Of a stretch of DNA of 64,000 nt, positions 4,597 to 62,860 are shown in pieces. The position numbers and the translations under genes are program-made. The DNA lies in NCBI GenBank assembly GCA_964561995.1, contig CAZLQZ010000004.1, forward strand, positions 16,717-80,716, read 5' to 3'. The notes under the pieces were generated by a model that did not search any database, was not told the origin of the DNA, and worked only from the letters and a program-made list of their open reading frames with translations. Within the stretch, counting starts at the first letter, position 1. Each line of letters opens with the position of its first letter. The DNA comes from an uncultured Methanosarcinales archaeon (GTDB taxonomy: Archaea > Nanobdellota > Nanobdellia > Woesearchaeales > JABIAG01).

Positions 4597-4632
4597 TAAT
4601 TGGTTTTAATTCTTTTCTATATTTAAAGCCAA

Positions 4633-4674
4633 CCTTATACATGTATAAGGTAGTTTTTTTTTTATAAGCTTATA
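4633..4674. promoter_or_regulatory. Two perfect palindromes (CCTTATACATGTATAAGG and TATAAGCTTATA) separated by a T10 run in the divergent intergenic region
   Basis: Both palindromes are exact reverse-complement repeats sharing TATAAG/CTTATA half-sites. They sit between the AbrB-like gene (minus) and the Lrp/AsnC gene (plus). Confidence 0.5.
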
Positions 4675-4719
4675 ACTAAATATCTTCGAAATAATTACAA
4701 TATTATTGGAGGAATTAAC

Positions 4720-5178
4720 ATGAATAATGAAAAAGAATTGAAAATGTTGAGTTATTTACGAAAAAATGGTCGGGAAAGATTAACAAAAATCAGTAGACAA
4801 ACTAAGATGCCGGTGTCAACTTTGTTTGATATGCTTCAAAAAACAAATAAAATTGTGAAAAATACTTGTTTATTGGATTTTTCTAAATTGGGTTTTTCAA
4901 TAAGAGCAAATGTTATTTTGAAAGTTAAACCTACACAAAGAACTCAGTTAAAAGAATTTTTAATTAATTATGTGAATTTAAATTCTTTATATCAAATTAA
5001 TAATGGGTATGATTTTATGGTTGAAGTTGTATGTCAGGAGCTTGATGAATTAGAAACTTTTTTGGAAAAGATTGAGGATGATTTTGATATTGTAGAAAAA
5101 AATGTATACTATATTATCAAAGATATTGCAAGAGAACAATTCTTAAGTAATCCTAATTCATTGTTGTTTTTGAATTAA
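4720..5178 (+). CDS. Lrp/AsnC-family transcriptional regulator
   Basis: N-terminal HTH (LSYLRKNGRERLTKISRQTKMPVSTLFDMLQK) plus a C-terminal RAM-like domain; 152 aa. Confidence 0.6.
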   Translation: MNNEKELKMLSYLRKNGRERLTKISRQTKMPVSTLFDMLQKTNKIVKNTCLLDFSKLGFSIRANVILKVKPTQRTQLKEFLINYVNLNSLYQINNGYDFMVEVVCQELDELETFLEKIEDDFDIVEKNVYYIIKDIAREQFLSNPNSLLFLN

Positions 5179-5835
5179 TCTTTTTTTAACTTTTTCTTTA
5201 AAAAGAATTACCGATAATATTGCACTTGTTATAATTGAAAAGATTATTACTGTTAGGTTTAAAGTAGGATTTGTAAAACTATCTCCCAAAGAAGCTGCAA
5301 TAAAACCATATGGTAGTGCACCAATTAACATTATTAAGATGAAATCTTTAAATCTTATGTCACTTAAACTTGCAGAAATTGCAATCAATTCATTTGGAAA
5401 TATTGGAATTAACCTTGCAATGTATAATGCATAAACAGCATCTTTTTTTATCATTTTTTTAAGATAGTTTAATTCTTTGTGTTTTCCTTTTTTTATGAAT
5501 CTTTTATGACCGTATTTTTTTATTACCTTGAATAATATCGAAGAACCAATAAGCATGGCAGATATGGAATATAATGCTCCTGCAATCATTCCAAATAAAA
5601 ATCCACCTAATACGTATATAAAAAATAGGGGTACAACTTCAAATAATGAAAAAAGTATCATTACAAACATAAAAGCAAATACTGATAAAGCTCCGGTGGA
5701 TTTGATAAAATCTCTTATTTCTTCAACATTAAATAAATTGTTTAAATCATTATGAATAACTAATATTACAACAAATATTAATATGGCAGCATACACTAGG
5801 GGTGCGATCTCTTTAGCTAATTTTTTCCAGTGCAT
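5158..5835 (-). CDS. Polytopic membrane protein, DedA/TVP38-like
   Basis: 5-6 predicted TM helices; VTT-like central region; no catalytic motif recognised. Confidence 0.3.
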   Translation of the reverse strand: MHWKKLAKEIAPLVYAAILIFVVILVIHNDLNNLFNVEEIRDFIKSTGALSVFAFMFVMILFSLFEVVPLFFIYVLGGFLFGMIAGALYSISAMLIGSSILFKVIKKYGHKRFIKKGKHKELNYLKKMIKKDAVYALYIARLIPIFPNELIAISASLSDIRFKDFILIMLIGALPYGFIAASLGDSFTNPTLNLTVIIFSIITSAILSVILFKEKVKKRLIQKQQ

Positions 5836-5906
5836 ACTTAGAAATAGATATTTTAGTTATTAAATGTTTTGTTAATCTTTTTAAACTATAGGACAACTCA
5901 GAATTT

Positions 5907-6401
5907 ATGAGTGATGTAAACAAATTAATCGATGACCTTTGGGTTAATCATTTAGTAAGGCTAACTAATCCACCAAAAAAAGTTTTTTATGCAAGATATA
6001 ACCTTTTTAAAGGAAATAATCATGATGTTGTTATATTTAATAATTTTGACACTGTTGGTTTTATAACTTTAAGAAATTCAGGAAAAAATTATAGAATTCT
6101 TAATGATTCTTTAGTAGTTCCTCATGAAGGATTTAGTAATAAACTGGGTTATGGTATTGAGGTTAAAGAAAAATATGAACGTAGAAATTTTGGTCATGCT
6201 CTTTTAAGTTTAGGAATTGGTGTTGCAATTAAAGATTTTAATGAGAAAGGTTTAGAAGATTTTGTGGTAAAAGTCTCAGGAATAAGTTCAAAAACACATT
6301 TTTATGAATCCTTCGGTTTTGAAACTCCAGGTTTTGGTGGTACATATAACCAAAGAAGCGTTCCAGACATTAATATTGTTTTTCCACATTATGAATATTA
6401 A
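5907..6401 (+). CDS. GNAT-family N-acetyltransferase (putative)
   Basis: RRNFGHALLSLGIGVA resembles the acetyl-CoA-binding Q/RxxGxG/A motif; 164 aa. Confidence 0.4.
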   Translation: MSDVNKLIDDLWVNHLVRLTNPPKKVFYARYNLFKGNNHDVVIFNNFDTVGFITLRNSGKNYRILNDSLVVPHEGFSNKLGYGIEVKEKYERRNFGHALLSLGIGVAIKDFNEKGLEDFVVKVSGISSKTHFYESFGFETPGFGGTYNQRSVPDINIVFPHYEY

Positions 6402-6403
6402 TT

Positions 6404-7120
6404 TTAAGAATTTTGTATTTCTATACTAATAGCTTTTTCTAGAACTTTAATTTTCATTGGACACTCTTTATAGTCAAGTTTATTGTCTTCACAGAATTCA
6501 ATAATTTTTTCTTTTTCTTTTTCTGTTTTAAATTTAACAAGAATGTTTATTTCTTTTCCAATGACATTAAATTTTATTTTTTTAAAAATTTCTTCTCTTT
6601 TTTCTTTTAGTTTTTTTAATCTATTTGGAAGGTTTTCTATTTTTTCATTTAATAAATTCATTTTAGCAATGTCAAAATCTGAAAAAATATTTAGATCATT
6701 GTCACTTGCAATTATTCCGCCGTATCCTAAATTAATCATTTTGTTTTTACCAAAACTACAAACAATTATGTCTGCTTCTGGAATTCTTTTTCCAATACTT
6801 CCAGTAATATCTGCAATGTAGAGAACATCATTCTTTCTTTTAATTTTATTTTGCATAAAAGCATAAGCTGGCATATCGTTAAACAGTACAACTCCTTTTT
6901 TTACATCATCAAAGTTAATGATTCCTCGTTTAGTTTTTAATTCAATAATCTTGAATTTTAATTTTTTACCATATTGTTCGTAAGTAATCCAATCACCTTG
7001 ATCTGCTAAGTATAGTGTATCATGTTTAGTTCGAGCATATCTTAATGCTTGTAAGATTGCTCTATTTCCTCTAGTAGTAAGAATTACGTTTTTTTTATTG
7101 GTTAGTTTATTTAGTTCCAT
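6404..7120 (-). CDS. Short DegT/DnrJ/EryC1-like PLP-fold protein (putative sugar aminotransferase-like, truncated architecture)
   Basis: VILTTRGNRAILQALRYA and CSFGKNKMINLGYGGIIASDN match the FSFxxxKxIxxGxGGxI PLP-lysine region of DegT-family enzymes; only 238 aa. Confidence 0.3.
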   Translation of the reverse strand: MELNKLTNKKNVILTTRGNRAILQALRYARTKHDTLYLADQGDWITYEQYGKKLKFKIIELKTKRGIINFDDVKKGVVLFNDMPAYAFMQNKIKRKNDVLYIADITGSIGKRIPEADIIVCSFGKNKMINLGYGGIIASDNDLNIFSDFDIAKMNLLNEKIENLPNRLKKLKEKREEIFKKIKFNVIGKEINILVKFKTEKEKEKIIEFCEDNKLDYKECPMKIKVLEKAISIEIQNS

Positions 7121-7775
7121 TTTCTTTTTTAATTATTTCAATTAAATCATAAAAATGTTCTGCTTCATAATCCGTTTTTAATTTATTTTTTGTTCTGGAT
7201 CCATATTTTGCAAAACAAATCTTAATGCCTGCATTTTTAGCTCCTTTAACATCTGTATCTGGTCTATCTCCTAACATTAGGGCTTCTTTTGCTTTAACAT
7301 TTAATCCTTTAAGTACTTTTTCAAAACCTTTTATGTTTGGTTTATTGGCATCTGCTATTATTATATCAAAAAAAGGAAGAAGTTTCATGGCATCTAATCT
7401 TTTTAATGCCTTTAATTTTGGAGCATCTGAAAGAACTGCAAGTTTAATTCCTTTTTTTATTAAATATATTAAAGTCGGTATAACTGTTGGATATGGTTCT
7501 AAAAATGCACTTTTTATTTTTCTGTAAGCGTTTGTAGCTACAGCAATTTTTATGTCGTCAACTTTATCATATTTAGATAAAAATTCAGTTAACCATTCAT
7601 TACTTTCAATACCAACTTTCCAATATATTTTCATTAATTTATTGTAAGCATCATCAAAATCCATTCTTAAGCCAGCATTAATCATGGCTTTAATAGCAGC
7701 TTCAACTGCTTTTTCCTTCATTGTGTAGAAATCAACTAATGTGTTGTCTACATCTAATATTATTGCTTTTATCAT
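7107..7775 (-). CDS. HAD-superfamily hydrolase (probable start at MIKAIILDVDNTL; the track ORF extends to 7826)
   Basis: DVDNTLV (DxDxT motif I) near the N-terminus; motif III GDRPDTD-like. Confidence 0.6.
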   Translation of the reverse strand: MIKAIILDVDNTLVDFYTMKEKAVEAAIKAMINAGLRMDFDDAYNKLMKIYWKVGIESNEWLTEFLSKYDKVDDIKIAVATNAYRKIKSAFLEPYPTVIPTLIYLIKKGIKLAVLSDAPKLKALKRLDAMKLLPFFDIIIADANKPNIKGFEKVLKGLNVKAKEALMLGDRPDTDVKGAKNAGIKICFAKYGSRTKNKLKTDYEAEHFYDLIEIIKKENGTK

Positions 7776-7847
7776 AGTGTATTGTAAGTAATCTGGTATA
7801 TAAATATGTGTGGGGAGACTTATCACTCCTACCTTTTCATGATTTTT

Positions 7848-8360
7848 TTAAGTACAGTATTGTGATAATGGATCATCTTTATATTGTCGCATTTTATCTA
7901 TTAATTCATTTAATATTTGTTGTGCATTTTCTGGTAAAGTTCCCATCATTTCAAATACTTCTGGTCCTTGCTTAAGAAAATCTTCTAACAAAATTTTTGA
8001 ATCTCCCGAAAAACCAGGATATTCTATTTGGAACATTGGTTTATCTTTTAAATCGACATGTTTGTCATTAAGATCAATAATGTCTGAACCGGGATTTTTG
8101 TGAAAAAGAACAACTCTTTTTGGACATAAGTAATCTCTTAATAACCATTTATCAAATGTCATAGATAACCAAGATTTACATTTAGAATAATCATTGTTAA
8201 CAACATATTCTATTTTAAAAAGATTTATGCCATAACTTGTCCAGTAAATTGATTGTCCATCTAATTTTTGAATCTTTGTCCATGGTATTAAATGGTCTGA
8301 TTCTTTTTTAGATTCGATAAGTTCTTTTAAACCAGTAAATGCTCTTGAGTCTTCTTTCAT
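7848..8360 (-). CDS. Hypothetical protein
   Basis: 170-aa ORF, first in the minus-strand operon with the HAD and DegT-like genes; no recognisable motif. Confidence 0.4.
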   Translation of the reverse strand: MKEDSRAFTGLKELIESKKESDHLIPWTKIQKLDGQSIYWTSYGINLFKIEYVVNNDYSKCKSWLSMTFDKWLLRDYLCPKRVVLFHKNPGSDIIDLNDKHVDLKDKPMFQIEYPGFSGDSKILLEDFLKQGPEVFEMMGTLPENAQQILNELIDKMRQYKDDPLSQYCT

Positions 8361-8443
8361 AATATTGAAGAATTGGCGATTATTAAAAAGTTATTTGTAA
8401 TTTCTAAAACTTTATAATAAGTTTAATCTTTTTTTATTTATTC

Positions 8444-8527
8444 GCGGAGGTGGCTGAGTGGTCAAAAGCGCTAGGTTGAGGGCCTAGTTCCTTAGTGGAT
8501 GCGCGTGTTCGAACCACGTCCTCCGCA
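8444..8527 (+). tRNA. tRNA-Leu (anticodon GAG), long variable arm, no intron
   Basis: Acceptor GCGGAGG/CCTCCGC; anticodon stem CTAGG/CCTAG with loop TTGAGGG; T-arm GCGTG-TTCGAAC-CACGT; TATA-like box upstream. Confidence 0.8.
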
Positions 8528-8598
8528 TTAAAATTTTATTTCAAAAAATTTATATACTTTGTTTTTAAATGTATTAAATATATATCAATGAGGTAAAA

Positions 8599-9465
8599 AT
8601 GTTTTCAAGTGAACAATATACGTTAGGAATTCCAATTAAGGAAGATATCTGTAATGAATTACAACAATTAATTTTTTCAATTATTGAAAAAGAACCATCA
8701 ATAGGAATTGATAAAAATACAACACAGAAGATAGAAGTTAAAGGTGAATTTCATATTACATTAGGTGTTTTTCATCCTAGTGCTTTTAAAAGTAATAAAA
8801 GTATGTTTAAGCATATAATTCATTTTTTAAGACAACATAAAAGTGTTTATTCAGAATTGAAAAAAGTGTTTAAAGGAAATGTTTTAATTAAAGGAATTGG
8901 TTTTGCTCATTCTAATAAATTAGTTAATAATGTGAAGGATGCGGATGTTACATATGCTGTTGCAGAATCAAGTGAAGTCAATACAATACGGTCGAAAATT
9001 CATGATTTATTGAGATTCTCAGGTATAGATGAAAAACATTTTATTTTTACAGACCCCCATATAACATTATTTATTAAATCTGGAAAAAAAGATGTTCATG
9101 GAGTAAATAAACCATTAAGAATTCCTTTAAATTCATTTTTAAATAAAAATAAATTAAATTTTAATTTTGAAACAGTAGTTTTTTATGGAACTAATAATAA
9201 GGCAATTGCTACATTTGGACCAAATGTTAAAAGTAAACCTTCAATAAAATTTGGTAAAATTCTTAAGACGAAGATACAAGAAATAAAAAGAAATGAAGTT
9301 AAAAGTGGACCTCAATATAATTGGGGAAATTTATTCAAAGATTTAGAATTTAGAGGAAAGGCTAATGAAATTAAAAATATTTTGATGGATTCTTCAAAAG
9401 GACCAAAAGAATTAGCCAAATTAATGGGTAGAGACATGGGAAAAGTAATGAAATTACTTAAATAA
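8599..9465 (+). CDS. 2H phosphoesterase superfamily protein (LigT/ThpR-like RNA 2',3'-cyclic phosphodiesterase / 2'-5' RNA ligase) with a C-terminal extension
   Basis: Two H-x-T-x motifs (FHITLGVF and PHITLFIK) spaced as in LigT; 288 aa against ~180 aa for canonical LigT. Confidence 0.6.
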   Translation: MFSSEQYTLGIPIKEDICNELQQLIFSIIEKEPSIGIDKNTTQKIEVKGEFHITLGVFHPSAFKSNKSMFKHIIHFLRQHKSVYSELKKVFKGNVLIKGIGFAHSNKLVNNVKDADVTYAVAESSEVNTIRSKIHDLLRFSGIDEKHFIFTDPHITLFIKSGKKDVHGVNKPLRIPLNSFLNKNKLNFNFETVVFYGTNNKAIATFGPNVKSKPSIKFGKILKTKIQEIKRNEVKSGPQYNWGNLFKDLEFRGKANEIKNILMDSSKGPKELAKLMGRDMGKVMKLLK

Positions 9466-9541
9466 TTGTCCAGTCAAATGTTTTAAATTTTTATAGGTTT
9501 TGTTTCAAAAAATTTATATGTTCTTTAAGTAAAATTTACTT

Positions 9542-10312
9542 ATGTTTTACTCACCAAAAGAATATCCTACTAAATCATTTATTTCTATTACATTAATTGT
9601 TTTAATTGGAATATTGGGGTCTGTTTATGTTCATCCTTTATTTCTTATTGCTGCTTTATTATACTGGATGCAGTACACTTCGGTTTTATCTTTTTCACAA
9701 TTCAAGAATAAATCTACACACAAAATTAATAGTTTAACGGGATTATTTCTTCAATCGATAGTGAGATTTGTAGTCTTTGAAATGTTAGCAGTTATTGGAA
9801 TTTTGTTTTATTTGCTTGCCGATAATGTGACCTTTGGAATATTTGCTTTGTTAGTCTGGTGGTTATTTGCTGTAAATTTTTATTTTTATTACACAAAAAA
9901 GTACTGGGTAATGATTATTTTAGGAATTATTGTATTTGTGACTTTGTTTTTAACTAATAGTGACAATATTATTGTTGAAATTTTAAATTTCTTTTTTATT
10001 ACTGTACCTTTATTGAAATTTTATAATTTTATTTTTTCGATAATGATTGCAATATTTGTTTATTTTTTGATAATTCGTTTTATTAATAAAAAAACAACTT
10101 CTGCCGGGTCTTTATTCTTTATTCTGTTATTTATTAGTCTAGGTATTGGTGCTTTTATAGAAATAATCATATATGAATTTTATTTTTATTCTTTATATCC
10201 CAATTTAGTGAATTATGTTGCTTCACAGATTATTGGTTTAATTTCTATTTTTTCAGGTTCATTAATTGGTTCTATTATTGTTGTTAGTCTTTTGTTTAAG
10301 AAACGGAAATAG
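9542..10312 (+). CDS. Polytopic membrane protein, hypothetical
   Basis: About 7 hydrophobic helices; no motif. Confidence 0.4.
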   Translation: MFYSPKEYPTKSFISITLIVLIGILGSVYVHPLFLIAALLYWMQYTSVLSFSQFKNKSTHKINSLTGLFLQSIVRFVVFEMLAVIGILFYLLADNVTFGIFALLVWWLFAVNFYFYYTKKYWVMIILGIIVFVTLFLTNSDNIIVEILNFFFITVPLLKFYNFIFSIMIAIFVYFLIIRFINKKTTSAGSLFFILLFISLGIGAFIEIIIYEFYFYSLYPNLVNYVASQIIGLISIFSGSLIGSIIVVSLLFKKRK

Positions 10313-10372
10313 AGTCTGCTCAATCAAAACCTTTATAAAATGCATAAAAATTTTATATATAGGTGATAAACA

Positions 10373-10795
10373 ATGCCAATCATAGGAACACATTTTACAA
10401 AAATTAATGTTGAAAACAAAAGAAAAGGTATGAGAAACTTAAAAGTTAACAATAATTTAGGAATTTCTAATATCGAAAAAATGGACTTAGAACTAGGAAG
10501 TGCAAAACAAAGTGGTGTTAGATTCGTTTTTGAATATACTACAAAATATGAACCTGATGCAGCAGAAATGATTTTTGAAGGCGAAGTTCTTTTTATTGAA
10601 GATGAAAAGAAAGTTGCTGAAATTTTAAATAATTGGAAAGATAAAAAACCAATTGATGATGATATTATGGCAAGAGTTATGAATTCTGCTTTAACTAAGT
10701 CTACAATTAAAGCTTTAAGTCTTTCTCAAGATATGAATCTGCCAGCTCCTGTTAAGTTGCCAAAGATTACTAAAAAAGAAGAAGCTAAGCAATAA
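10373..10795 (+). CDS. Hypothetical protein upstream of CDC48
   Basis: 140-aa ORF with an RBS-like context. Confidence 0.35.
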   Translation: MPIIGTHFTKINVENKRKGMRNLKVNNNLGISNIEKMDLELGSAKQSGVRFVFEYTTKYEPDAAEMIFEGEVLFIEDEKKVAEILNNWKDKKPIDDDIMARVMNSALTKSTIKALSLSQDMNLPAPVKLPKITKKEEAKQ

Positions 10796-10828
10796 GCTTT
10801 TTAAATTCTTTATTCTTTTATTTATAAT

Positions 10829-13696
10829 ATGAAAAAAGAAGATGTAACTTTAAAAGTTGCTGAAGCAATTCAGGATGATGTTGAAAAAGGAATTGTTCGT
10901 ATAGATTCTGCTTTTATGAAAGATTTAGAAGTTAATCCCGGAGATGTTATTGAAATCGAAGGAGAAAGAAAAACTTCTGCAATTGTTGATCGTTCTTATC
11001 CAGGTGATATTGGTTTAGATATAATTCGAATGGATGGTTTAATTCGAAGAAATGCTAAGACCGGTTTGGGTGAGACTGTTAAAATTAGAAAAATTGACGT
11101 TAGGGAAGCTAAGAAAGTTACAATTGCTCCTGCTAAAAAGGGAATTGTTGTAAGAGCTTCTCCTGTAACATTTAAAAGAGGTTTATTGGGAAGGTCAGTA
11201 GTTAAAGGTGATATTGTTTCTTTGGGTGGAGTAAGAAGAAGAAAAAATGCAATGAGTGATAATCCTTTTTTTAATGAAATATTTTCAATGCAAGAAGAGA
11301 AATTTGGAAACTTTTTTGCAGATTTAAAATTTATTGTTGTTGCAACAGATTCAAAAACACCAGTAATAATTGGTGAAAATACAGAAGTTACTATTAATCC
11401 TGAATCAGTCGAGATTTCAGATGAAACTGTTCCAGATGTTTCTTATGAAGATATTGGCGGGTTAGATGATGAATTGAAAAAAGTAAGAGAGATGGTAGAA
11501 TTACCATTAAAACATCCTGAAGTTTTTGAAAGATTAGGTATTGAACCTCCTAAAGGGGTGTTAATGCATGGTCCCCCTGGAACTGGTAAAACTTTGCTTG
11601 CAAAGGCTGTAGCTAACGAAACTAATGCTCACTTTATTTTAATTAACGGTCCTGAAATAATGTCTAAATTTTATGGGGAATCTGAAGCAAATTTAAGAAA
11701 GAAGTTTGAAGAAGCTGAAAAAAATGCTCCTTCTATTGTATTTATTGATGAAATTGATGCAATTGCTTCAAAAAGAGAAGAAACTCATGGTGAAGTTGAA
11801 AAAAGAGTTGTTGCTCAATTATTGGCAATAATGGACGGTTTACAATCTAGAGGAAAAGTAATAGTTATTGCTGCTTCTAATATTCCTCACGCTTTAGACC
11901 CTGCGTTAAGAAGACCTGGAAGATTTGATAGAGAGTTAGAAATTGGTGTTCCTGGAAAAGATGCAAGACTTCAAATTTTAAAGATTCATACTAGAAATAT
12001 GCCATTAAAAGGCAGTTTGTATGCTGAAAATATTAAACCATTAGTTCTTGATGAAATAGATGTCAAAATTAAAAATATTAATCTTCAAACAATTAGTAAA
12101 GAAGAAATGTTAAATCAAAAAGAAGATAAATTAAAAGGGCTTAATAATGAACTTGAAAATTCTAAAAAACAAATTAATGATTTACAAAAACAAATCAGTT
12201 CATTAGATATAGAAAAAGAAACATCAGACCAAAGTATGATTTACAAGATTTTAGATTCAATAAAAAGGCTTACTAATCAAAAGTCAAGTTTAGAAAAAGA
12301 AGTTCAAAATTTTAAAGAATCAATTGATGAACAAGAAAAAGAAATAAGTAAAATTAAATCAGAAATTGAAGATTTCAAATCAGGCATTATTAAAATTGAA
12401 AATGTTTTAGTAGAATTAAAAGAAGATAAATCCAAAATTAATGATTTAACAAATGAGATTATTGATTTAGAAGTTAGTGTTAGAAATCGTAGTTTATCGG
12501 ACCCTAGAGGTTTAATTTCTCAAAATAAAATTAGTGAATTATATCCAGTTCTTATGTCACATAATATAGTTTCCTTAATCTTGGACAAAGCAAGTCAAAA
12601 AGGAATTGTTAAAGATTTAGAGTCAATTTCAGAAATTACTCACGGTTTTGTTGGAGCAGATGTTTCAGCATTAGCAAAGGAAGCCGCTATGACTGTATTA
12701 AGAGAAGTATTTCCAGATATTCAAAATAAAGAAGAGGATGAAGCTATTCCAAGAGATGTTCTTGAAAAATTATTTATTACAAAACAAGATTTTTATAATG
12801 CTTTAAAAGTTGTTAGACCGTCAGCAATGAGAGAAGTTTTAGTGGAAGTTCCATCTGTTAAATGGGAAGATGTTGGTGGATTAGAAGATGCAAGACAAGA
12901 ATTACTTGAAGCTATTGAATGGCCATTAAAAAATCCTGAAGCTTTCAAAAGATTAGGTATTAGTCCTCCAAAAGGCGTATTGTTATATGGTCCTCCTGGA
13001 ACTGGTAAAACTTTACTTGCAAAAGCTGTGGCAACTGAAACACAAGCTAATTTTATTTCAATTAAAGGTCCTGAATTATTATCCAAATGGGTTGGTGAAT
13101 CTGAAAAAGCAATAAGAGAAATTTTTAAAAAAGCAAGGCAAACTTCACCAACAGTTATTTTCTTTGATGAAATTGATTCGATTGCTCCTGGAAGAAATCA
13201 ATCTTCAGAATCAAGTGTTACTCAAAGAGTTGTTAATCAATTGCTTACTGAATTAGATGGTTTAGAAGAATTACACAATGTAGTTGTTATTGCAGCAACT
13301 AATCGTCCAGATATAATGGATGCCGCATTATTAAGACCTGGAAGATTTGATAGAATTTTATTAACTCCTGTTCCGGATAAAAAAGCAAGGTTGAAGATAT
13401 TTGAAGTTCATACTAAAGAGATGCCTTTAAAAGATGTTAATTTAGATATTTTAGCCGATAAAACAGATGGTTATGTTGGAGCTGATATTGAAGCGATTTG
13501 TAGAGAAGCTGCAATTATTGCATTAAGAAAAAGTATGGATGCTAAAGAAGTTACTTTTGAACATTTTGAAAAAGCATTAGAAAAAGTTCATGCTTCAGTA
13601 AATAAAGATATTCAAGATTCTTATGAAAATCTTGAAAAAAATTTCAGGATGAAAAAAGCTAAGGAAATTAACGAATCTGTTAATTATATGGGTTAA
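10829..13696 (+). CDS. cdc48: CDC48/VCP-like AAA+ ATPase (N domain plus D1 and D2) with a ~210-aa coiled-coil insertion in the D1 lid
   Basis: Two Walker A (GPPGTGKT) and Walker B (DEID) boxes; SRH regions; N-terminal double-psi barrel. An insertion sits between HTRNMPL and [19 protein letters not shown]. Confidence 0.9.
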
Positions 13697-13698
13697 TA

Positions 13699-14103
13699 AT
13701 GAAAATTGCTATATGTGGGAGTATGTCAGCTGCCAAAGAAATGGTTGAAGTTAAAGATTTCTTAGAAAAAAAAGGTCATAAAATTCATATTCAAGATGAT
13801 ATAATGGATTTTGTTGAAGGTAAAAGAACAGATGAAGATAAATGGAGAAAGATTGAAATTGATCCGTTTAAAAATTATTTTGAAGTTATAAAAAGTTGTG
13901 ATGCAATCATAGTTGTTAATGTTGAAAAAAAAGGTGTTAAAGGTTACATTGGTGGCAATTCACTAATTGAGATGGCATTTGCTCATGTTTTGGATAAAAA
14001 AATTTATTTATTATGTGAAATCCCGAAGTTAAGTTATACTGATGAAATTGCAGCTTTTCAACCTATTTTATTAAATGAAAATATTGGAAATTTGGAGGAA
14101 TAA
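13699..14103 (+). CDS. Small Rossmann-like protein (nucleoside 2-deoxyribosyltransferase-like, tentative)
   Basis: MKIAICGSM...YIGGNSLIEMAFAHVLDKKIYLL pattern; 134 aa. Confidence 0.3.
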   Translation: MKIAICGSMSAAKEMVEVKDFLEKKGHKIHIQDDIMDFVEGKRTDEDKWRKIEIDPFKNYFEVIKSCDAIIVVNVEKKGVKGYIGGNSLIEMAFAHVLDKKIYLLCEIPKLSYTDEIAAFQPILLNENIGNLEE

Positions 14104-14104
14104 A

Positions 14105-14416
14105 ATGTTACTAAGCACAACAGATAATTTAGAAAAAAAATATGAAGTTTTAGGATTAGTTAAAGGTAATACTATTCAAAGTAGGCATGTAGGAAGAGAT
14201 ATTATGGCTGGTTTTAAACAAATAATTGGTGGAGAGATTAAGAGTTATACTCAAATGTTAGACAAAGCTAGGCAACAAGCAGTTAAAAGAATGGAAGATG
14301 AAGCAAAAGAACTTGGTGCTGATGCAATTATTGAAATTCGGTTTACGACATCATCTATTATGCAGGCAGCTTCTGAAGTATTAGCTTATGGTACTGCAAT
14401 AAAATATTTACAATGA
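14105..14416 (+). CDS. YbjQ/UPF0145 family protein
   Basis: MLLSTTDNLEKKYEVLGLVKG...ADAIIEIRF matches the UPF0145 pattern; start chosen at the internal ATG after the stop of the preceding gene. Confidence 0.6.
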   Translation: MLLSTTDNLEKKYEVLGLVKGNTIQSRHVGRDIMAGFKQIIGGEIKSYTQMLDKARQQAVKRMEDEAKELGADAIIEIRFTTSSIMQAASEVLAYGTAIKYLQ

Positions 14417-15135
14417 AACTTTTTGAATTAATTGAATTTTTAAATAATGAATTAGATTTATCTATTGAAGATAGTTCTAATAATGGATTACAAGTAGGTA
14501 CTGATAAAGAAATTAAAAAAATAGGTTTTGCAGTTGATGCAAATTTAGAAACTTTCAAAAAAGCTAAAGAAAACAAGTGTGACTTGTTAATTGTTCATCA
14601 TGGAATAAGTTGGAATGATTCTTTAAAACATATTACAGGAAATAATTATGATAGGGTTGGTTTTTTAATTGAAAATAATTTAGCTTTAGTAGCTTATCAT
14701 TTGCCATTAGATTGTCATAAAGTTTTAGGAAATAATATTCAAATTGCTCAATTATTGGGTTTAAGAAAAGTTAAACCTTTTGATGTTGGTTTTGTTGGTG
14801 AGCTAAGACAAGATTTAGATCCTGAAACAATGTCAAAAGCATTAGAAAATATATTGAAAACAAAATGTAAAAATTTATTTTATGGTAAAAATTTAATTCA
14901 TTCTGTAGCGATTATTTCCGGAGGAGCGGGAAGAGATATTGAAGATGCTTCTAAAATTGCAGATTGTTTTATTACTGGTGAAATTAATTATGGTCATGAA
15001 ACAATAGCTAAAGAAGTTAAAATAAATGTAATTGTTGCAGGCCACTATGAAACTGAAACTTTAGGTCTAAAAGCTTTGATGAAATTTTTGAATAGAAAAA
15101 CTGATTCTGAATTGGTTTTTATAGAATCATATTAA
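14413..15135 (+). CDS. NIF3/YqfO family metal-binding protein
   Basis: LIVHHGISW and AYHLPLDCH motifs of the dinuclear-metal NIF3 family. Confidence 0.7.
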   Translation: MKLFELIEFLNNELDLSIEDSSNNGLQVGTDKEIKKIGFAVDANLETFKKAKENKCDLLIVHHGISWNDSLKHITGNNYDRVGFLIENNLALVAYHLPLDCHKVLGNNIQIAQLLGLRKVKPFDVGFVGELRQDLDPETMSKALENILKTKCKNLFYGKNLIHSVAIISGGAGRDIEDASKIADCFITGEINYGHETIAKEVKINVIVAGHYETETLGLKALMKFLNRKTDSELVFIESY

Positions 15136-15224: not shown

Positions 15225-17180
15225 ATGCAGGCAGACGAAATACTAAAAAGGCAAATTTCTGAGGGAGTTATGCGTATGCAAGTTAACGACCCTAAATATG
15301 ATGGATTGGTTTCTGTTATGAGGTTACTTGCTTCTAATCATAAACTTTCTCGAGATCCTGAAATAAAATCTTTTTTAAGAGATATAGGGGAGCCAACTGT
15401 TGATCATTTAAGAGTGGGTTACCTAGACCCAGTAAGACATTATTTAAGAGAATTAGGACATGAAGAAGTTTTAATTCCTGAAGTAAGAGAAGTAAAAGAA
15501 CTTGAAGAAAGGGTAAAAGAATTAGAATTAGTTAATGCAGATTTAAAAACTAAATCATTATTAAATATTTCTTCAAAAGATGGGAAAAAAGTTTTACCTT
15601 TAAATTCAGGACTTGAAAAATCAAGTGGAAGTTTATCATCAAATCTTTCTGATTCATTAGATAAAAGAGTTTTTGGCGAAACTAATAGTGTAAATGGCGG
15701 GGAAAATAATACTGAATCTGGGAATCAAACTAAAACTGGTTTTAGGTTTGCAAAAGCATTAGCAGAATACGATAATCATTCTTTTCAATCTGCAAGAACA
15801 GTTGGTGCTTTAGAGCATCATGGTTACTTAAAAAGGGATGGTAATGATTATTTTACTGATGAGTCGATTAAAAAAGTTCAAAACTACATGAAAGATAAAA
15901 CTTATTTTTGTGAAGTGGTTGATAAATTGAGTGAAACTTTTGGTTTATCAAAACCATCTATAAGAAACAAAGTTGATGATTTTTTAATTAATCGAGGTAA
16001 AGGTACTAATTCAATATTGGTTTTTGAAGGTACTGTTGATGAATTAATAGAAAAATCAAAAAAGAATTCTTCAACTCCTATAAGTAAAAGTAAGAAAACT
16101 GTTCAAGATGTAAATTCTTCAAAACCAACAATTACTTTTGATTATATTTTAAAAGAAAGATCTGATGTTGTTCCGTGTATTACTTATTTGTGTAAAATTG
16201 TTAGTGCAGGAAATTTAATTAGAGTGGGTATGGGTCTTATCGATAAGGAATCTTTTGAAGATTTTGCGCAAAAAAGAAGTAATTATACTTATCTTAAGGA
16301 TTCTATTAATTTATTTGCTAAAGATGTAAGGTTTGCACAACCAAGAATTAAATCCATTTTAAGGGAATCAAATTTAGTTGAAAATATTGGAACTGAAGGC
16401 AAAGGTGGAGTTGAATGGTATGAAAAAATAAAAGAAGGTGAGATATTATTTAGACTAAGAAGAGAACCTCAACAAAAAAAGAAATTATATTTTTATGAAG
16501 ATGTCAAATCTGTTTATAATAGTAATGAAGATTTATTTTTCGATGTTAATGCTGTAAGAGCTATGGCAGATTTTGATATTTTAAAAACTAATGAAAAGGG
16601 AGAAATTTTAACTGATTCTGTCAAGTCACTTAATCGTGCATTTATATTCTCTGAATATCAATATATTACGTTAGAAGAAATTGCAAAAGAAACTGGATTA
16701 GAAGGTTTAACCGAAAATGATTTAGGAGAGGCAAGAAGGTATTTGGCACAAGTTGCCCAAATTAATGGAAATCCTGTTTATGTTGTAGAAAAGAATAATA
16801 AAGACGTAGTAATTAATTTATGTTCTAAAGACTTATTATATTCAAGTAAAGAAAATATTATTTCTTCATTAAATCCTTGGGAAGAAGATAGTAATATGTT
16901 TGGACATCGGTATGCTTTAGCTGCCCAAGCAATAAAAGAAGGTATTTTTGATATGCCTGTTTATCTAGGTTTTAAAGAACAATTTGAATCTGCAGTTAAA
17001 GCTTCAGGAAGTGATTCTGTTTTTGCATTGTTTATGGGTGCTGGCAGAAAAGCTGGAATTCCGGATTATAGAAAATTACAATGTTCTATAAATGATATTC
17101 AAAACAGTCCTCACGCTCATGATACCATACTTCATTTTCTCGAGAATTTGGATGAGAAGGTTCAACCACAAGTGAGTTAA
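15225..17180 (+). CDS. Large orphan protein (651 aa) with a sigma-70 region-1.2-like motif and a region-4.2-like HTH start
   Basis: LDPVRHYLRELG resembles the conserved sigma-70 region-1.2 segment (recalled E. coli form DPVRMYMREMG); ITLEEIAKETGL resembles the start of the region-4.2 HTH; the rest is unrecognised. 3' end overlaps the convergent sigma gene. Confidence 0.5.
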   Translation: MQADEILKRQISEGVMRMQVNDPKYDGLVSVMRLLASNHKLSRDPEIKSFLRDIGEPTVDHLRVGYLDPVRHYLRELGHEEVLIPEVREVKELEERVKELELVNADLKTKSLLNISSKDGKKVLPLNSGLEKSSGSLSSNLSDSLDKRVFGETNSVNGGENNTESGNQTKTGFRFAKALAEYDNHSFQSARTVGALEHHGYLKRDGNDYFTDESIKKVQNYMKDKTYFCEVVDKLSETFGLSKPSIRNKVDDFLINRGKGTNSILVFEGTVDELIEKSKKNSSTPISKSKKTVQDVNSSKPTITFDYILKERSDVVPCITYLCKIVSAGNLIRVGMGLIDKESFEDFAQKRSNYTYLKDSINLFAKDVRFAQPRIKSILRESNLVENIGTEGKGGVEWYEKIKEGEILFRLRREPQQKKKLYFYEDVKSVYNSNEDLFFDVNAVRAMADFDILKTNEKGEILTDSVKSLNRAFIFSEYQYITLEEIAKETGLEGLTENDLGEARRYLAQVAQINGNPVYVVEKNNKDVVINLCSKDLLYSSKENIISSLNPWEEDSNMFGHRYALAAQAIKEGIFDMPVYLGFKEQFESAVKASGSDSVFALFMGAGRKAGIPDYRKLQCSINDIQNSPHAHDTILHFLENLDEKVQPQVS

Positions 17181-18531
17181 TATTTTCTAATGGTGTTGTT
17201 GAATTATTATCTTCAGGCAATAATGATAATTTTTTTGCAATAAAATAAATTCCTTCATATTCAGTTTGTTTAACTTCTTCTTCACTCCAATTAAGTTGAG
17301 AAGCAGTTTGCTTATAATCTTGGTTTTCAACATAAAGTTTATCTAAAACTAATTTTTGTTTAACATCATAAATTAAATCGATTGTTTCTTCAAATTGATC
17401 TAAACCATCTAATTCAGATAAAATTTTATATAATAAGTCGTTAGTTGGGTCAACAAATTTTATTTCTCCTCTTTTAAATCTTTGATAATCTGTTTTCCAA
17501 TTTTGTTTAGTTATTTTTGAAGGAGTTTTAATTTCTTTTGATTGTTTTGTTGTACTAATAATTGTTTCTAAATTTTCAGTTTTTTTAACAACTTTTTCTT
17601 TTAATAATTTTGTTTTAGTTTTTTCTCTTTTTTTATGAAGATAATCAATTTTAACAATTTTTCCTTTTGTTTCAATAGGTATAATTGGAGAAAAATCTGT
17701 TTCTTTTTCATAATCGGTTGTGTTTTTATCCATTAATCTATTAAGCTCGGAAAGTGCTTTTTGTTGTAGTTGTCTTACTCTCTCTCTAGTTCTTCCGATT
17801 AGTTTTGAAACCGATTCTAATGTTTTTGGTTCTTGTCCATTAAGGCCAAATCTATGAGTTAAAATTAATCTTTCTCTTTTCTCTAACTTTGGTAATAATT
17901 TGCAAGCATTTTTTGCTAATTCTTCTATTTTTCTTCTTTCAAATTCTGGATCTTCTTGTCCTAAATAAATTTCTTCAAAAGTTTTTTTGCCATATTGTTC
18001 AATTGGTGCGTCAATTGATATTGTGGTCGTTTTTATACTTTTTAAGCTTATTATTGTTCTAATAGTATAGCCAGTATATTCTGCTAATTCTTTATCAGTT
18101 GGTTTTCTGCTTAAATCTTCTGTTAAAACATTTTCTGCTTTTCGTATCTTAATAATTTTAGAATTGCTTTGAACTGGAATTCTTACTGTTTTTGCTTGAT
18201 TATTTATTGCTCTTCGCATACCTTGTTTAATCCACCAAGAAGCATAAGAAGAAAATTTAGCACCTTTTGCGGGGTCAAACTTTTCAACAGCTCGTATCAT
18301 TCCAATATTACCTTCAGAAATCAAATCTTGTAAAGGTAATCCTAAACCTTTAAAATTGTGAGCAATTTTAACAACTAATCTTAAATTACTCTCAATTAGT
18401 TTTTCTTTTGCTCTTTTTTCACCTTTTTTAATTCTGGCTGCTAGTTCTACTTCTTCTTCCCTAGTAATTAAAGGAAATCGATTAATCATTCGATAATAAC
18501 TTTTAATTGTATCTCCATTATTAATTTCCAT
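17086..18531 (-). CDS. Sigma-70 family RNA polymerase sigma factor (regions 1.2, 2, 3, 4) with a novel ~200-aa C-terminal extension
   Basis: LVVKIAHNFKGLGLPLQDLISEGNIGMIRAVEKFDPAKGAKFSSYASWWIKQGMRRAI (regions 2.1-2.4) and LESVSKLIGRTRERVRQLQQKALSELNRL (region 4.2) are near-consensus RpoD sequence. Confidence 0.75.
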   Translation of the reverse strand: MEINNGDTIKSYYRMINRFPLITREEEVELAARIKKGEKRAKEKLIESNLRLVVKIAHNFKGLGLPLQDLISEGNIGMIRAVEKFDPAKGAKFSSYASWWIKQGMRRAINNQAKTVRIPVQSNSKIIKIRKAENVLTEDLSRKPTDKELAEYTGYTIRTIISLKSIKTTTISIDAPIEQYGKKTFEEIYLGQEDPEFERRKIEELAKNACKLLPKLEKRERLILTHRFGLNGQEPKTLESVSKLIGRTRERVRQLQQKALSELNRLMDKNTTDYEKETDFSPIIPIETKGKIVKIDYLHKKREKTKTKLLKEKVVKKTENLETIISTTKQSKEIKTPSKITKQNWKTDYQRFKRGEIKFVDPTNDLLYKILSELDGLDQFEETIDLIYDVKQKLVLDKLYVENQDYKQTASQLNWSEEEVKQTEYEGIYFIAKKLSLLPEDNNSTTPLENINSLVVEPSHPNSRENEVWYHEREDCFEYHL

Positions 18532-18615
18532 TTATTTAGTATTTTGTTTGTTGTTTTAAAGATTTTCATACTTAAACAGAAACAATTTTATAGTAGTTAT
18601 TTCATAAAATACATA

Positions 18616-22657: not shown

Positions 22658-23371
22658 GTGAAATCATTAATTCAAATTAAAAATGTAGGTAAAAGCTACA
22701 AAATGGGAAAAGCAGGAATGCTTGATGTTTTAAAAGGAATTAATTTGGACATTTCACCAGGAGAATTTTTAACAATAATTGGACCTAGTGGTTCAGGAAA
22801 AAGTACTATGATGAATATTGTTGGAGCATTAGATATTCCATCTTCAGGTGAAGTTCTAATTATGAATAAAAATATTGCAAAAATGTCGGAATCTTCTCTT
22901 GCTGTTTTAAGAGGAAAAACAATTGGTTTTATTTTTCAACAGTTTAATTTAGTTCCAACTTTATCTGCTTTAGAAAATGTTATGCTTCCAATGGAATTTA
23001 TAGATGTTCCTACTAATGTTGCAAAAAAAAGAGCAACAGAACTTCTTGAAATGTTAGGTTTAGGTGATAGAGTTGATCATAAACCTAATGAACTCTCTGG
23101 AGGGCAACAACAAAGAGTTGCGATTGCAAGAGCTTTGTCAAACGACCCACCAATTATACTTGCTGATGAACCCACCGGAAATTTGGATAGTAAAACAGGT
23201 ATTTTTGTTATGGATTTTTTAAGAAAATTAAATACGAAACAAGGAAAAACTATTATTTTAATCACTCATGATACTTCTTTAATTAAATACGCTCATCGAG
23301 TAATACATTTAAAAGACGGGGTTGTGGTTAAGGATGTTTTTTCTAATCATAAAAAGGAGGATAAAAAATGA
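22658..23371 (+). CDS. ABC transporter ATP-binding protein (MacB/LolD-type, GTG start)
   Basis: Walker A GPSGSGKST; signature LSGGQQQRVAIARAL; Walker B ILADEPTGNLD. Confidence 0.85.
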   Translation: MKSLIQIKNVGKSYKMGKAGMLDVLKGINLDISPGEFLTIIGPSGSGKSTMMNIVGALDIPSSGEVLIMNKNIAKMSESSLAVLRGKTIGFIFQQFNLVPTLSALENVMLPMEFIDVPTNVAKKRATELLEMLGLGDRVDHKPNELSGGQQQRVAIARALSNDPPIILADEPTGNLDSKTGIFVMDFLRKLNTKQGKTIILITHDTSLIKYAHRVIHLKDGVVVKDVFSNHKKEDKK

Positions 23372-24297
23372 AACTTATAAAAAAAACAATTATTTTATTA
23401 ATGGTGGTGCTATGCTTATCTTTTAATGTTTTTGCAGATACATATGAAGATAATTATTCAGTAATAACTTATAATAATGCTTTTTCAGAAGCAAACCTTC
23501 AAGTTGTTCAATTAAGGTATGAACCTTACCCTGCAAATCCGGGTGATTATGTTACTGTTTGGATTAAAGCAGAAAATATTGGAAATACTTTTACAAAGGA
23601 TGCTGTTTTTAAATTAATTCCAGAATATCCTTTTTCATTAGATTCTAGTCAAGACGCGATTAAATCGTTTGGTAATCTTAATACCGAACCTGTTGTTTTG
23701 GAATATAAACTTAAAGTTGATGAAAATGCTGTTGATGGAATTAACGAAATTAAAATTGCTTTTTTAGAAGATGGACAAGAAGATAATTGGGGTTATAAAA
23801 CATTTGATATTGAAGTAGATAATTCTCAAACTGATTTTGATTTGGTAATTCAAGAAATAAGTGGCAATGAACTTTCTATTGCAATTGCTAATACTGGAAA
23901 AAACGTTGCATATTCAACAATTGTAAGAATTCCTAATCAAGAAAACTTTAATGTTATTGGAACCGATGGTCAAATGGTTGGTAATTTAGAAGATGGCGAT
24001 TATACTCTTGTAGGATTTGAAGTGAATAATAATAATCGTAATAGTTTGTTAAATGTTCAAATAGATTATACTGATGAAATTGGAGAAAGAAGAAGTGTTG
24101 TTAAGGAAGTTAAGTATCCTTTAACTTTAACTTCATCTTCTGAATTAAATTTAATTAATGGTAGGCCTACAAAACAACAACAGGAAACTTCTTTACTTCA
24201 AAAATGGTGGTTTTGGTTATTAATTGTTTTTGTTGCTTTTTTAACTTATAGAATCTATAAGCGTTATAAAATTTTTAGATCTAAAAGAGGGAAATAA
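23368..24297 (+). CDS. Secreted CARDB/COG1361-like beta-sandwich protein with a C-terminal TM anchor
   Basis: Signal peptide; YEPYPANPGDYVTVWIKAENIGN (CARDB-like); C-terminal WWFWLLIVFVAFLTYRIYKRYK anchor. The COG1136+COG1361+COG0577 triad is a known archaeal arrangement (recalled). Confidence 0.5.
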   Translation: MKLIKKTIILLMVVLCLSFNVFADTYEDNYSVITYNNAFSEANLQVVQLRYEPYPANPGDYVTVWIKAENIGNTFTKDAVFKLIPEYPFSLDSSQDAIKSFGNLNTEPVVLEYKLKVDENAVDGINEIKIAFLEDGQEDNWGYKTFDIEVDNSQTDFDLVIQEISGNELSIAIANTGKNVAYSTIVRIPNQENFNVIGTDGQMVGNLEDGDYTLVGFEVNNNNRNSLLNVQIDYTDEIGERRSVVKEVKYPLTLTSSSELNLINGRPTKQQQETSLLQKWWFWLLIVFVAFLTYRIYKRYKIFRSKRGK

Positions 24298-24303
24298 AGC
24301 AAA

Positions 24304-25557
24304 ATGAGATTAAGGAAAATTTTACAGCTGGCTTGGAATATATTAATTCATAGTAAACTACGAAGTTGGCTTACTATAATTGGTATAGTCATTGGAATTG
24401 CAGCTGTAGTTTCAATAGTATCAATTAGTCAAGGTGCTCAAAATAGTCTTGCAAATCAATTCGATGATTTAGGTGCTGATATTATTACTATTACTCCTGG
24501 TTATTCAAAGGCTACTGGTTTTATGGGCCCGGTGCGAGGAGGAGGTGGTGCGTCGGAATCATCTGTTGATCAAGAAGATTTGACTGATAAAGATACGCTT
24601 GCTTTGAAAAGTCTTACAAATATAAAATATGTTATGGGCAAAGTGTCTGGTACTGCCGAAGTTAAATACTTGGGTGAGTCAGGAGATGTTACAGTAACTG
24701 GAGTTGATACTGATGTTTGGAAAGACATGATTACTGATGAATTGGAATCAGGCAGATATTTAACTAAGGGTGATATTTATTCAGTAATTATAGGTTATAA
24801 AAGAGCACATTCTTTTTTCGATAATGAAGTTCAAATAAATCGACAAATTTCAATTGAAGGAAAAATATTCAAAGTAGTGGGAATTTTTGAGCAAGGGGAA
24901 GATGATAATGCAATTATTATTCCTATTAAAGCGGCAATTGATGTTTTAGATGATGTAGAGGATGGTGAATTTAATTCTATTTCAATAAAGGTCGATAATG
25001 AAGAACTGGTAAATGAAACATTAAATGATGTAGAAAAAAAATTAATGTTGTCACGAGGTATATTGAGAGAAGATGAAAAAGATTTTACAGTTTCATCTGT
25101 TTTAGAACTTCAAACAACTATAACTCAAACACTAAATACTATGTCCATTTTTCTTGGGTCTATTGCTGCAATCTCTTTACTTGTTGGAGCAGTGGGAATT
25201 TCAAATACTATGTTTACTTCAGTATTAGAAAAAACAAAAGAAATTGGAATTATGAAAGCAATTGGTTCGAAAAATAAAGATATTCTTTTGATATTTTTAT
25301 TCAATTCAGGTATGATTGGTTTTGTTGGTGGATTGGGCGGAGTAATTCTTGGTTCAATTGCTTCAGGTTACATTGGATTGTTAACTTCTAGTAGTTCCTC
25401 TGGAGGAATATCGAGAATGTTTGGAACAACTTCATTATCTTTTGAACTTTTGTTATTTGCATTTTTATTTTCAATAGTAATTGGTATGATTGCAGGAGTA
25501 ATTCCAGCATATCGTGCTTCAAGATTAAAACCTGTTGACGCATTAAGGTACGAATAA
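24304..25557 (+). CDS. ABC transporter permease (MacB/FtsX-type, with extracytoplasmic domain)
   Basis: N-terminal TM, a large external domain, and a C-terminal FtsX-like 3-TM bundle ending RASRLKPVDALRYE. Confidence 0.8.
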   Translation: MRLRKILQLAWNILIHSKLRSWLTIIGIVIGIAAVVSIVSISQGAQNSLANQFDDLGADIITITPGYSKATGFMGPVRGGGGASESSVDQEDLTDKDTLALKSLTNIKYVMGKVSGTAEVKYLGESGDVTVTGVDTDVWKDMITDELESGRYLTKGDIYSVIIGYKRAHSFFDNEVQINRQISIEGKIFKVVGIFEQGEDDNAIIIPIKAAIDVLDDVEDGEFNSISIKVDNEELVNETLNDVEKKLMLSRGILREDEKDFTVSSVLELQTTITQTLNTMSIFLGSIAAISLLVGAVGISNTMFTSVLEKTKEIGIMKAIGSKNKDILLIFLFNSGMIGFVGGLGGVILGSIASGYIGLLTSSSSSGGISRMFGTTSLSFELLLFAFLFSIVIGMIAGVIPAYRASRLKPVDALRYE

Positions 25558-45921: not shown

Positions 45922-45925
45922 AATG

Positions 45926-62841: not shown

Positions 62842-62860
62842 TTGATTATTTTAGTAATAT

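Follow-up and report, generated by a model that had tools for sequence, protein, structure and literature searches.

We analyzed a sigma-70-family gene found on an archaeal contig. The window, i.e., the whole stretch of DNA under analysis, comprises 64,000 nucleotides (nt) of contig CAZLQZ010000004.1 (assembly GCA_964561995.1), and the gene lies on its minus strand. Bacteria initiate transcription with sigma factors, whereas archaea and eukaryotes use the TATA-binding protein (TBP) together with TFB/TFIIB, and the two systems are considered to exclude each other. The gene encodes a protein of 481 amino acids (aa), whose first ~265 residues make up the sigma part; a C-terminal extension follows it. 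The promoter candidate, the gene and the regions of its sigma part are as follows:

18555 to 18560, minus strand: TTTAAA box at -29 relative to the ATG; candidate TATA-type promoter of a putatively leaderless mRNA
17086 to 18531, minus strand: sigma-70-family gene, 481 codons plus the stop codon (17086 to 17088); from the list of open reading frames (ORFs), Pfam and the PDB match
18415 to 18513, minus strand: region 1.2 (aa 7 to 39); PF00140 (Sigma70_r1_2), 44.3 bits against a cut-off of 22
18190 to 18399, minus strand: region 2 (aa 45 to 114), with core-binding 2.1/2.2, DNA-melting 2.3 and -10-recognition 2.4; PF04542 (Sigma70_r2), 69.7 bits against 24, E = 1.9e-19, profile positions 1 to 70 of 71
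17956 to 18159, minus strand: region 3 (aa 125 to 192), a diverged 3.1 plus the 3.2 linker/finger; PF04539, 35.5 bits against 25.3
17743 to 17895, minus strand: region 4 (aa 213 to 263), the -35-recognition helix-turn-helix (HTH) GRTRERVRQLQQKAL; PF04545, 47.1 bits against 24.1

Regions 1.2, 2, 3 and 4 all score above their Pfam cut-offs, and the motifs quoted for them in the initial annotation, which had proposed a full-length sigma-70 factor, are present in the protein. The DNA-melting aromatic residues of region 2.3 (Y96, W99 and W100) align to invariant bacterial columns, as does the recognition helix of region 4.2, where R249-E250-R251-V252-R253-Q254 follows the pattern R-E-R-x-R-Q. Searching the PDB returned 65 distinct sigma chains at E ≤ 1e-10. 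The top match is an RpoS chain (7f0r_F, E = 4.6e-54, covering aa 8 to 271), followed by HrdB/SigA chains, and the RpoS/SigA matches span E = 1e-46 to 5e-54. In the AlphaFold2 model of the full-length protein, built with 37 homologues, sigma-1.2/2, sigma-3 and sigma-4 have a predicted local distance difference test (pLDDT) score above 90.

The placement of the sigma part among the known families is less specific. Models of RpoS, of a cyanobacterial RpoD family and of RpoD rank on top in NCBIfam, each of them scoring below its own equivalog cut-off. The scores are too low for group 1 RpoD/SigA (TIGR02393, 213 against 354; NF006666, 207 against 572) and for RpoS (TIGR02394, 264.6 against 378.7; NF004207, 249.1 against 394). 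Region 1.1 is absent, with only six residues ahead of region 1.2, and the nearest Lentisphaerae relatives are built alike; the non-conserved region of primary sigmas is also missing from the 481-aa protein. Regions 1.2 and 3, both above cut-off, set the protein apart from the extracytoplasmic function (ECF) sigmas, which have neither. Because all NCBIfam equivalog scores lie below their cut-offs, we classify the sigma part, on these profiles, as a generic group-2-type sigma that is not the ortholog of any named sigma. Hence, the description as full-length holds for the complete series of regions 1.2, 2, 3 and 4, but not for region 1.1, which is missing from this group-2-type protein. Measured against its ~277-aa bacterial homologues, the protein is complete despite this absence.

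Archaeal setting and promoter

The contig is genuinely archaeal and belongs to the DPANN/Woesearchaeota. It encodes the Rpr2/Rpp21 subunit of RNase P (43642 to 43938), a type II methionine aminopeptidase (56374 to 57240; TIGR00501, 289 bits against a cut-off of 222.65), an archaeal-type RNase HII and, within the window, two TrmB regulators. There are also two intron-containing tRNAs, detected only when introns were allowed, and a CDC48 that has its named homologues almost exclusively in Candidatus Woesearchaeota. Together with the TATA promoters described below, these markers bear out the archaeal surroundings that had been proposed from the sequence.

The sigma gene has the composition of its host. 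Its GC content is 0.271 (0.106 at third codon positions, GC3) in a window where GC stays flat at ~27%, and its codon usage (z = -0.73) is within the distribution of the other 63 window genes. The identical gene, with identical flanks on both sides, is found in two other assemblies, ENA k141_453786 (a MEGAHIT contig) and the Logan assembly SRR8526173, whose differences from the window are restricted to a contig end inside CDC48 and one single-nucleotide polymorphism. In the locus designated L001, 40 mismatches are clustered at the contig end inside CDC48 and the gene itself is identical. The host-like composition and codon usage, the archaeal markers, and the two assemblies reproducing the junctions on both sides led us to reject chimerism and mis-binning.

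The promoter signals of the window are those of an archaeon. The motif TTTAWA starts at -31 to -27 relative to the start codon in 23 of the 64 window genes, with almost no occurrences from -26 to -10. This peak indicates archaeal TATA boxes ahead of mRNAs that are, for the most part, leaderless in this organism. The TTTAAA of the sigma gene, at -29, falls inside the peak, and the two other archaeal sigma genes presented below, L003 and L025, have TTTAAA and TTAAAA at -28 and -26, respectively. From this position, we infer that the sigma gene uses a host-type leaderless TATA promoter.

Origin, inheritance and selection

The best 119 database relatives of the protein are ~277-aa bacterial sigmas that match its first ~270 residues with 53 to 61% identity, and the named ones are all Victivallales or Lentisphaeria. 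One of the top matches lies in a bacterial neighborhood, with genes for HPr and a rhamnosidase. A neighbor-joining (NJ) tree of 263 columns also gives the Lentisphaerae/Victivallales sigmas as the nearest to the putative donor: the protein and L003 form a clade with Lentisphaerae-like sequences in 196 of 200 bootstraps, a clade that leaves out Omnitrophota, Planctomycetota and L025.

Copies of the gene do exist in other archaeal genomes. Each GTDB species was represented by one genome in a pattern scan that revealed two archaeal copies; the host genome is not among these representatives. L003 is a sigma of 322 aa, 47 to 48% identical to ours, on the 284-kb contig CAZJAJ010000002.1. L025 (334 aa, 32% identity) is on a Woesearchaeota contig, where it adjoins intein-containing gyrase genes. 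These genes (positions 236 to 5947 of L025) encode the B and A subunits of a bacterial-type DNA gyrase, each apparently split by an intein-like insertion. No closer ortholog, with more than 48% identity, was found in the genome-contig scan, the second metagenome scan or the viral scan.

The neighborhood of L003 is the most informative. Eight genes and a tRNA-Leu(GAG) are shared between L003 (5884 to 14911) and the window (3.7 to 15.1 kb; 3700 to 15135). The best segment of CDC48 is 81% identical between the two, and the neighboring proteins range from 30 to 81% identity, bracketing the 47% of the sigma. The L003 sigma gene stands between the tRNA-Leu, 59 nt after it, and a homologue of the window gene at 6404 to 7120; that of the window is ~2 kb beyond NIF3. 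Hence, the two loci are the same neighborhood, locally rearranged, and the L003 contig is, judging from these similarities, that of a relative of the window's organism. L003 is labelled "uncultured Methanosarcinales archaeon"; this designation is probably mistaken, unless the contig was mis-binned. In our reading, a single old transfer would have brought the gene from a donor of the Planctomycetes-Verrucomicrobia-Chlamydiae (PVC) type to the ancestor of the archaea carrying the window's copy and L003; since then, it would have descended vertically and evolved faster. The L025 copy is probably the result of a separate or much older event.

To describe how the gene has evolved since, we defined as invariant the positions conserved in at least 95% of 37 bacterial homologues from four phyla (n = 62). 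The window's protein keeps 57 of them and L003 keeps 55; of the five that changed in the former, four are conservative (L/M, M/I, L/I and V/I). In region 2, 31 of the 34 invariant positions are kept and the changes are conservative. This includes regions 2.1/2.2, with 17 of 19 kept and two conservative changes. Region 4.2 keeps all eight bacterially invariant positions, and none of the three archaeal copies retains the invariant Asp of region 3.2 (aa 191). The retention of 57 of 62 invariant positions, despite complete re-coding to 27% GC, is the reason why the gene appears to be under purifying selection. The earlier claim that the gene is intact and not a pseudogene is likewise upheld.

The regions differ in their identity to a Lentisphaerae-type consensus, given here beside the identity among the bacteria:

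Regions 2.1 to 2.4: 74 to 85% for the window's protein, 94 to 98% among bacteria
Region 4.2: 66% for the window's protein, 94% among bacteria
Region 3.1: 48% for the window's protein, 84% among bacteria
Region 3.2: 35% for the window's protein, 86% among bacteria

In the bacterial holoenzyme, region 3.2 threads through the active-site cleft and the RNA exit channel. Its relaxation hints that this canonical job may no longer be required. By the same comparison, the parts predicted to contact DNA (2.3, 2.4 and 4.2) and the clamp helices (2.1 and 2.2) are still constrained.

The C-terminal extension and the neighboring genes

The features of the 3' part of the gene are the following:

17089 to 17733, minus strand: lineage-specific C-terminal extension of ~215 aa (aa 267 to 481)
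17260 to 17361, minus strand: candidate second sigma-region-4-like HTH KQKLVLDKLYVENQDYKQTASQLNWSEEEVKQTE (aa 391 to 424); sub-threshold matches
17086 to 17180: convergent 3' overlap of 95 nt between the sigma gene and an unannotated 651-aa ORF (15225 to 17180, plus strand); from ORF coordinates

The extension consists of a Lys-rich, low-complexity linker predicted to be helical (aa ~267 to 344), a helical region (aa ~345 to 436) and a tail. With this base composition, a frame of 211 codons would stay open by chance with a probability of ~5e-9, the codons of the extension are host-typical, and no TATA-like box was found ahead of the internal Met267. For these three reasons, we consider the extension to be part of the same protein. 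The sigmas of L003 and L025 lack it.

The extension had been said to match nothing recognizable, and our searches agree with this as far as homologues in protein and metagenome data are concerned. HMMER returned no hits from all 1.84 billion representatives of a library that is clustered at 50% identity, where extended relatives may hide under shorter representatives. A word-index search of 5.8 billion clusters gave none either, although this is a weak negative, as the query's own protein was also not returned. No homologue was found in a peptide-pattern scan of metagenome contigs or by BLAST against the gathered loci and the window ORFs. Still, the claim must be qualified by weak signals of a sigma region 4 or HTH. 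When the fragment of aa 340 to 450 was compared with 24,736 Pfam models, Sigma70_r4 (E = 0.0022) and r4_2 (E = 0.0071) ranked first and third. In NCBIfam, TIGR02937 (E = 1.8e-4) and SigX (E = 5.9e-4) match the candidate HTH below threshold. A second, diverged sigma-4-like HTH in the extension is therefore plausible from these profiles, with the balance slightly in its favor. AlphaFold2 predicts the extension as helical, with low confidence (pLDDT of 49.5 from the single sequence and of 30 to 64 in the full-length model), and Foldseek found no match to it in the PDB below E = 3. A recent duplication of the protein's region 4 was also considered as the source of the extension and rejected, since the family-specific and the broader sigma-4 hidden Markov models (HMMs) score below shuffles.

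The 95-nt overlap with the 651-aa ORF is likewise called in the two other assemblies. This ORF has no family match and is absent from the syntenic L003 block; by eye, it contains three internal repeats of ~125 aa, each ending in an HTH-like segment. A region-1.2-like motif in it, DPVRHYLRELG (Pfam E = 0.096), was discarded, as it was supported neither by a local profile nor by shuffles. Around the sigma gene, the flanks are housekeeping genes and we saw no integrase or viral gene. Among the ~64 ORFs scanned in the window, none has a domain of the beta, beta-prime or alpha subunits of RNA polymerase (RNAP) or of an anti-sigma factor. When the contig was extended in search of rRNA and RNAP genes, only one end could be lengthened, by 5.8 kb holding polysaccharide-synthesis genes.

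Other genes of the contig deserve mention. Many are of bacterial type: a type I GAPDH (TIGR01534, 425 bits, above cut-off), a MacB/FtsX ABC transporter, a hybrid kinase with the architecture PAS-PAS-HisKA-HATPase-REC, two Bac_transf sugar transferases and a protein of the exosortase/archaeosortase family. They are located at 36530 to 37522 (plus strand), 22658 to 25557, 32408 to 35401 and 60471 to 63520, and their presence fits the heavy influx of bacterial genes described for DPANN. The CDC48 gene (10829 to 13696, plus strand) encodes 955 aa, against ~755 aa in most close Woesearchaeota homologues. Its BLAST coverage comes in two segments, which suggests an insertion of ~200 aa, and the long form (900 to 990 aa) occurs in a subset of the relatives. 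Of the two intron-containing tRNAs, the tRNA-Asn (45925 to 46027, minus strand) directly adjoins a LAGLIDADG-like ORF (45151 to 45921, plus strand), and the placement of its intron by ARAGORN looks non-canonical; the other is a tRNA-Ser (CGA) at 48279 to 48392 with an intron of 38 nt. Finally, the ORF at 154 to 1434 (plus strand, 426 aa) has only the mobile and the phosphoenolpyruvate (PEP)-binding domains of a PEP-utilising enzyme; its product is missing from the gene-position index, and the ORF could represent a split or truncated PpsA/PPDK.

Possible functions and known systems

Our best explanation for this locus is that a group-2-type sigma, derived from a PVC-type bacterium and adapted to its archaeal host, would now act as a stand-alone DNA-binding regulator. 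We have high confidence in the part of this explanation that concerns the identity and the evolution of the gene. The mechanism is more tentative, being a possibility that we place somewhat below an even chance, and the explanation taken as a whole is evenly balanced. Its well-supported part is as follows. The ancestor of a Woesearchaeota (DPANN) lineage took up a group-2 sigma from a PVC-type bacterium. The gene then adapted fully to the composition and codons of the host, came to stand behind a host-type TATA/leaderless promoter, was inherited vertically and appears to have been maintained by purifying selection. In this lineage, it gained the ~215-aa orphan extension, perhaps holding the second sigma-4-like HTH. 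The protein would no longer be an initiation subunit of a bacterial RNAP, but a sequence-specific regulator binding promoter DNA. We propose this because the promoters of the window are of the TBP/TFB type and no bacterial core RNAP gene is present in its 64 kb.

There is a precedent for DNA binding by a sigma alone. Region 1.1 of the Escherichia coli sigma-70 is auto-inhibitory and masks the DNA binding of the free factor, and N-terminally truncated fragments of sigma-70 without region 1.1 reportedly bind promoter DNA without core, in work by Dombroski and colleagues from 1992 and 1993. In the absence of this auto-inhibitory region, the sigma-4 HTH and sigma-2 could bind unaided a -35-type and a -10-type element, respectively, and the extension would supply a further module for binding DNA or a partner. 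The surface of region 2.1/2.2 may also dock on the clamp coiled-coil of the archaeal RNAP. This coiled-coil is conserved in all multisubunit RNAPs, and the archaeal one is homologous to the beta-prime clamp helices. The initial annotation had left the choice between a repurposed DNA-binding regulator and an acquisition maintained by selection; the data are compatible with both and prove neither.

Several observations weigh against these ideas. Sigma-70-type -35/-10 elements match around the gene no more often than expected (98 times, against 108.9 ± 9.0). Core-binding regions 2.1/2.2 are conserved like the DNA-binding parts; for a protein that only binds DNA by itself there is no obvious need of this, which would favor an RNAP-like partner. 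The search for a bacterial core RNAP covered 64 kb of the genome only. The second HTH is a matter of sub-threshold hits, low-confidence models and an empty fold search, and the local profiles of group-1/2 sigma-4, which align in the same register, do so no better than shuffled controls. As for the evolutionary part, the window's protein and L003 are sisters in just 2 of the 200 NJ bootstraps, forming a basal grade with long basal branches. Hence, a single shared acquisition is supported by the synteny and not by the tree, which neither strongly confirms nor contradicts it.

Among the other explanations, the most likely is that of hybrid initiation, in which the archaeal RNAP would receive sigma-2 at its Rpo1 clamp coiled-coil and sigma-4 close to the flap/wall, with the sigma acting at a subset of promoters with or against TBP/TFB. 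The interface with the beta-prime clamp helices (2.1/2.2) keeps 17 of its 19 invariant positions, and the gene was retained and inherited within archaea with no bacterial core subunit nearby. We nevertheless regard it as unlikely: region 3.2 is strongly diverged and has lost its invariant Asp, and regions 2.1/2.2 may have been kept merely as the core of the sigma-2 fold. Its fuller version, a vertically inherited hybrid that would dock through 2.1/2.2 and leave the choice of promoter to sigma-4 and the extra HTH, is a shade less likely still. A canonical sigma working with a bacterial-type core RNAP, encoded elsewhere or in a bacterial partner cell, would account for the intact canonical determinants, and the contig does carry many other bacterial-type genes (type I GAPDH, MacB/FtsX, hybrid histidine kinase, Bac_transf). 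Yet, the promoter signal is an archaeal TATA at about -29, there is no evident secretion signal or export context, and genes for beta, beta-prime or alpha are neither present in the window nor reported for the sigma-bearing DPANN genomes (Castelle et al. 2021, PMC8204110). This makes a canonical role very unlikely.

The gene could also be a functionless passenger drifting to loss, with an extension born from the loss of a stop codon into non-coding DNA. Much about the extension would suit this idea, as it is an orphan, low-complexity, Lys-rich, with a very low GC3 of 0.076, a poorly predicted structure and a 95-nt overlap with the neighboring ORF; the divergence of regions 3.1/3.2 would suit it too. 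A gene left to drift would, however, hardly have kept 57 of 62 invariant positions through full amelioration to 27% GC, an ortholog in the syntenic block of a second, distant genome, a 211-codon open frame expected by chance at ~5e-9 and a host-type promoter, and we give the passenger little credit. A role in defense or in a mobile element, as an MzaA-like anti-phage sigma or a provirus or plasmid gene, is suggested by matches of the sigma domain to MzaA models and by the position of the L003 gene, which follows a tRNA-Leu, the usual kind of integration site, by 59 nt. These matches are those of a generic sigma domain: the NCBIfam score (221.5) is far under the cut-off of 800 and the match is limited to profile positions 474 to 702, and that of PADLOC (E = 3e-40) covers only positions 426 to 656 of 683, whereas a complete MzaA has about 700 aa with N-terminal domains. 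Moreover, the neighboring genes have no PADLOC match, no integrase or viral gene is nearby, the scan of viral contigs was empty and the flanks are housekeeping genes, which makes this role highly improbable. Least credible of all is an artefact, either an assembly chimera or a mis-binned bacterial contig, e.g., of the Candidate Phyla Radiation. The sigma family is otherwise bacterial, and nothing else speaks for it. Archaeal markers flank the gene: CDC48 at a distance of 3.4 kb and, across the gene from it, TrmB, Rpp21 and the intron-containing tRNAs. The composition is uniform, the junctions are identical in two more assemblies and the same association is found on a second archaeal contig.

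The presence of a sigma-70 gene in an archaeon, at first presumed to be novel, was in fact already on record. Castelle et al. (2021, Front Microbiol, PMC8204110) described such genes in DPANN as fam00359, "particularly prevalent in Woesearchaeota." These authors excluded mis-binning, saw no anti-sigma factors, reported TBP, TFB and TFE in the sigma-bearing genomes and left the mechanism open. Our literature searches found no follow-up of this report. The present case is likewise that of a bacterial sigma gene amid archaeal markers, in the same phylum-level host group, co-encoded with the marker genes and not mis-binned, and also without an anti-sigma factor among the scanned ORFs of the window. 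It differs in the ~215-aa extension, which is missing in the two other archaeal copies; the likeness to fam00359 is by description. To this our analysis adds that the sub-lineage likely got its gene from a PVC/Lentisphaerae-type source. It further adds synteny pointing to vertical inheritance within archaea, a regional map of constraint (2.x and 4.2 kept, 3.1/3.2 relaxed), evidence for a host leaderless TATA promoter and a C-terminal extension that is an orphan and unique among the copies. Either sigma domains could find a second use as plain DNA-binding regulators, or an archaeal-type RNAP could work with a sigma. If the latter were true, it would bear directly on the divergence of the two initiation systems. 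With a donor lineage, a syntenic ortholog, a constraint map and a removable extension, the locus is a concrete and clonable test case and a good entry point for experiments.

Comparison with other systems puts these features in perspective. The ~277-aa sigmas of Lentisphaerae/Victivallales, annotated as RpoD/SigA, have the same order of regions (1.2, 2, 3 and 4), lack region 1.1 and are 55 to 60% identical to aa 5 to 268 of the protein. Unlike the archaeal protein, they act with a bacterial core RNAP and end ~10 to 50 residues after region 4, and their regions 3.1/3.2 are 84 to 86% conserved, against 35 to 48% in the archaeal copy. RpoS and the other group-2 sigmas (PDB 7f0r_F and 5ipl_F) have the same four regions and provide the best structural match, although the protein is not an ortholog of the proteobacterial RpoS. 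In ECF41 and ECF42, the sigma carries a C-terminal extension that could modulate its own activity, in place of a separate anti-sigma factor. The protein resembles them, by functional analogy, in having a fused C-terminal extension, but their SnoaL-like and TPR extensions have no similarity to the one described here. At the other end of the comparison, TFB/TFIIB and TBP are the initiation factors of archaea, functional analogues of sigma, and the promoters of the host show their TATA signature (PMC7289017). They have a different fold and no meaningful sequence relationship to sigma, and the sigma of this host comes in addition to the TBP/TFB system, not as its replacement.

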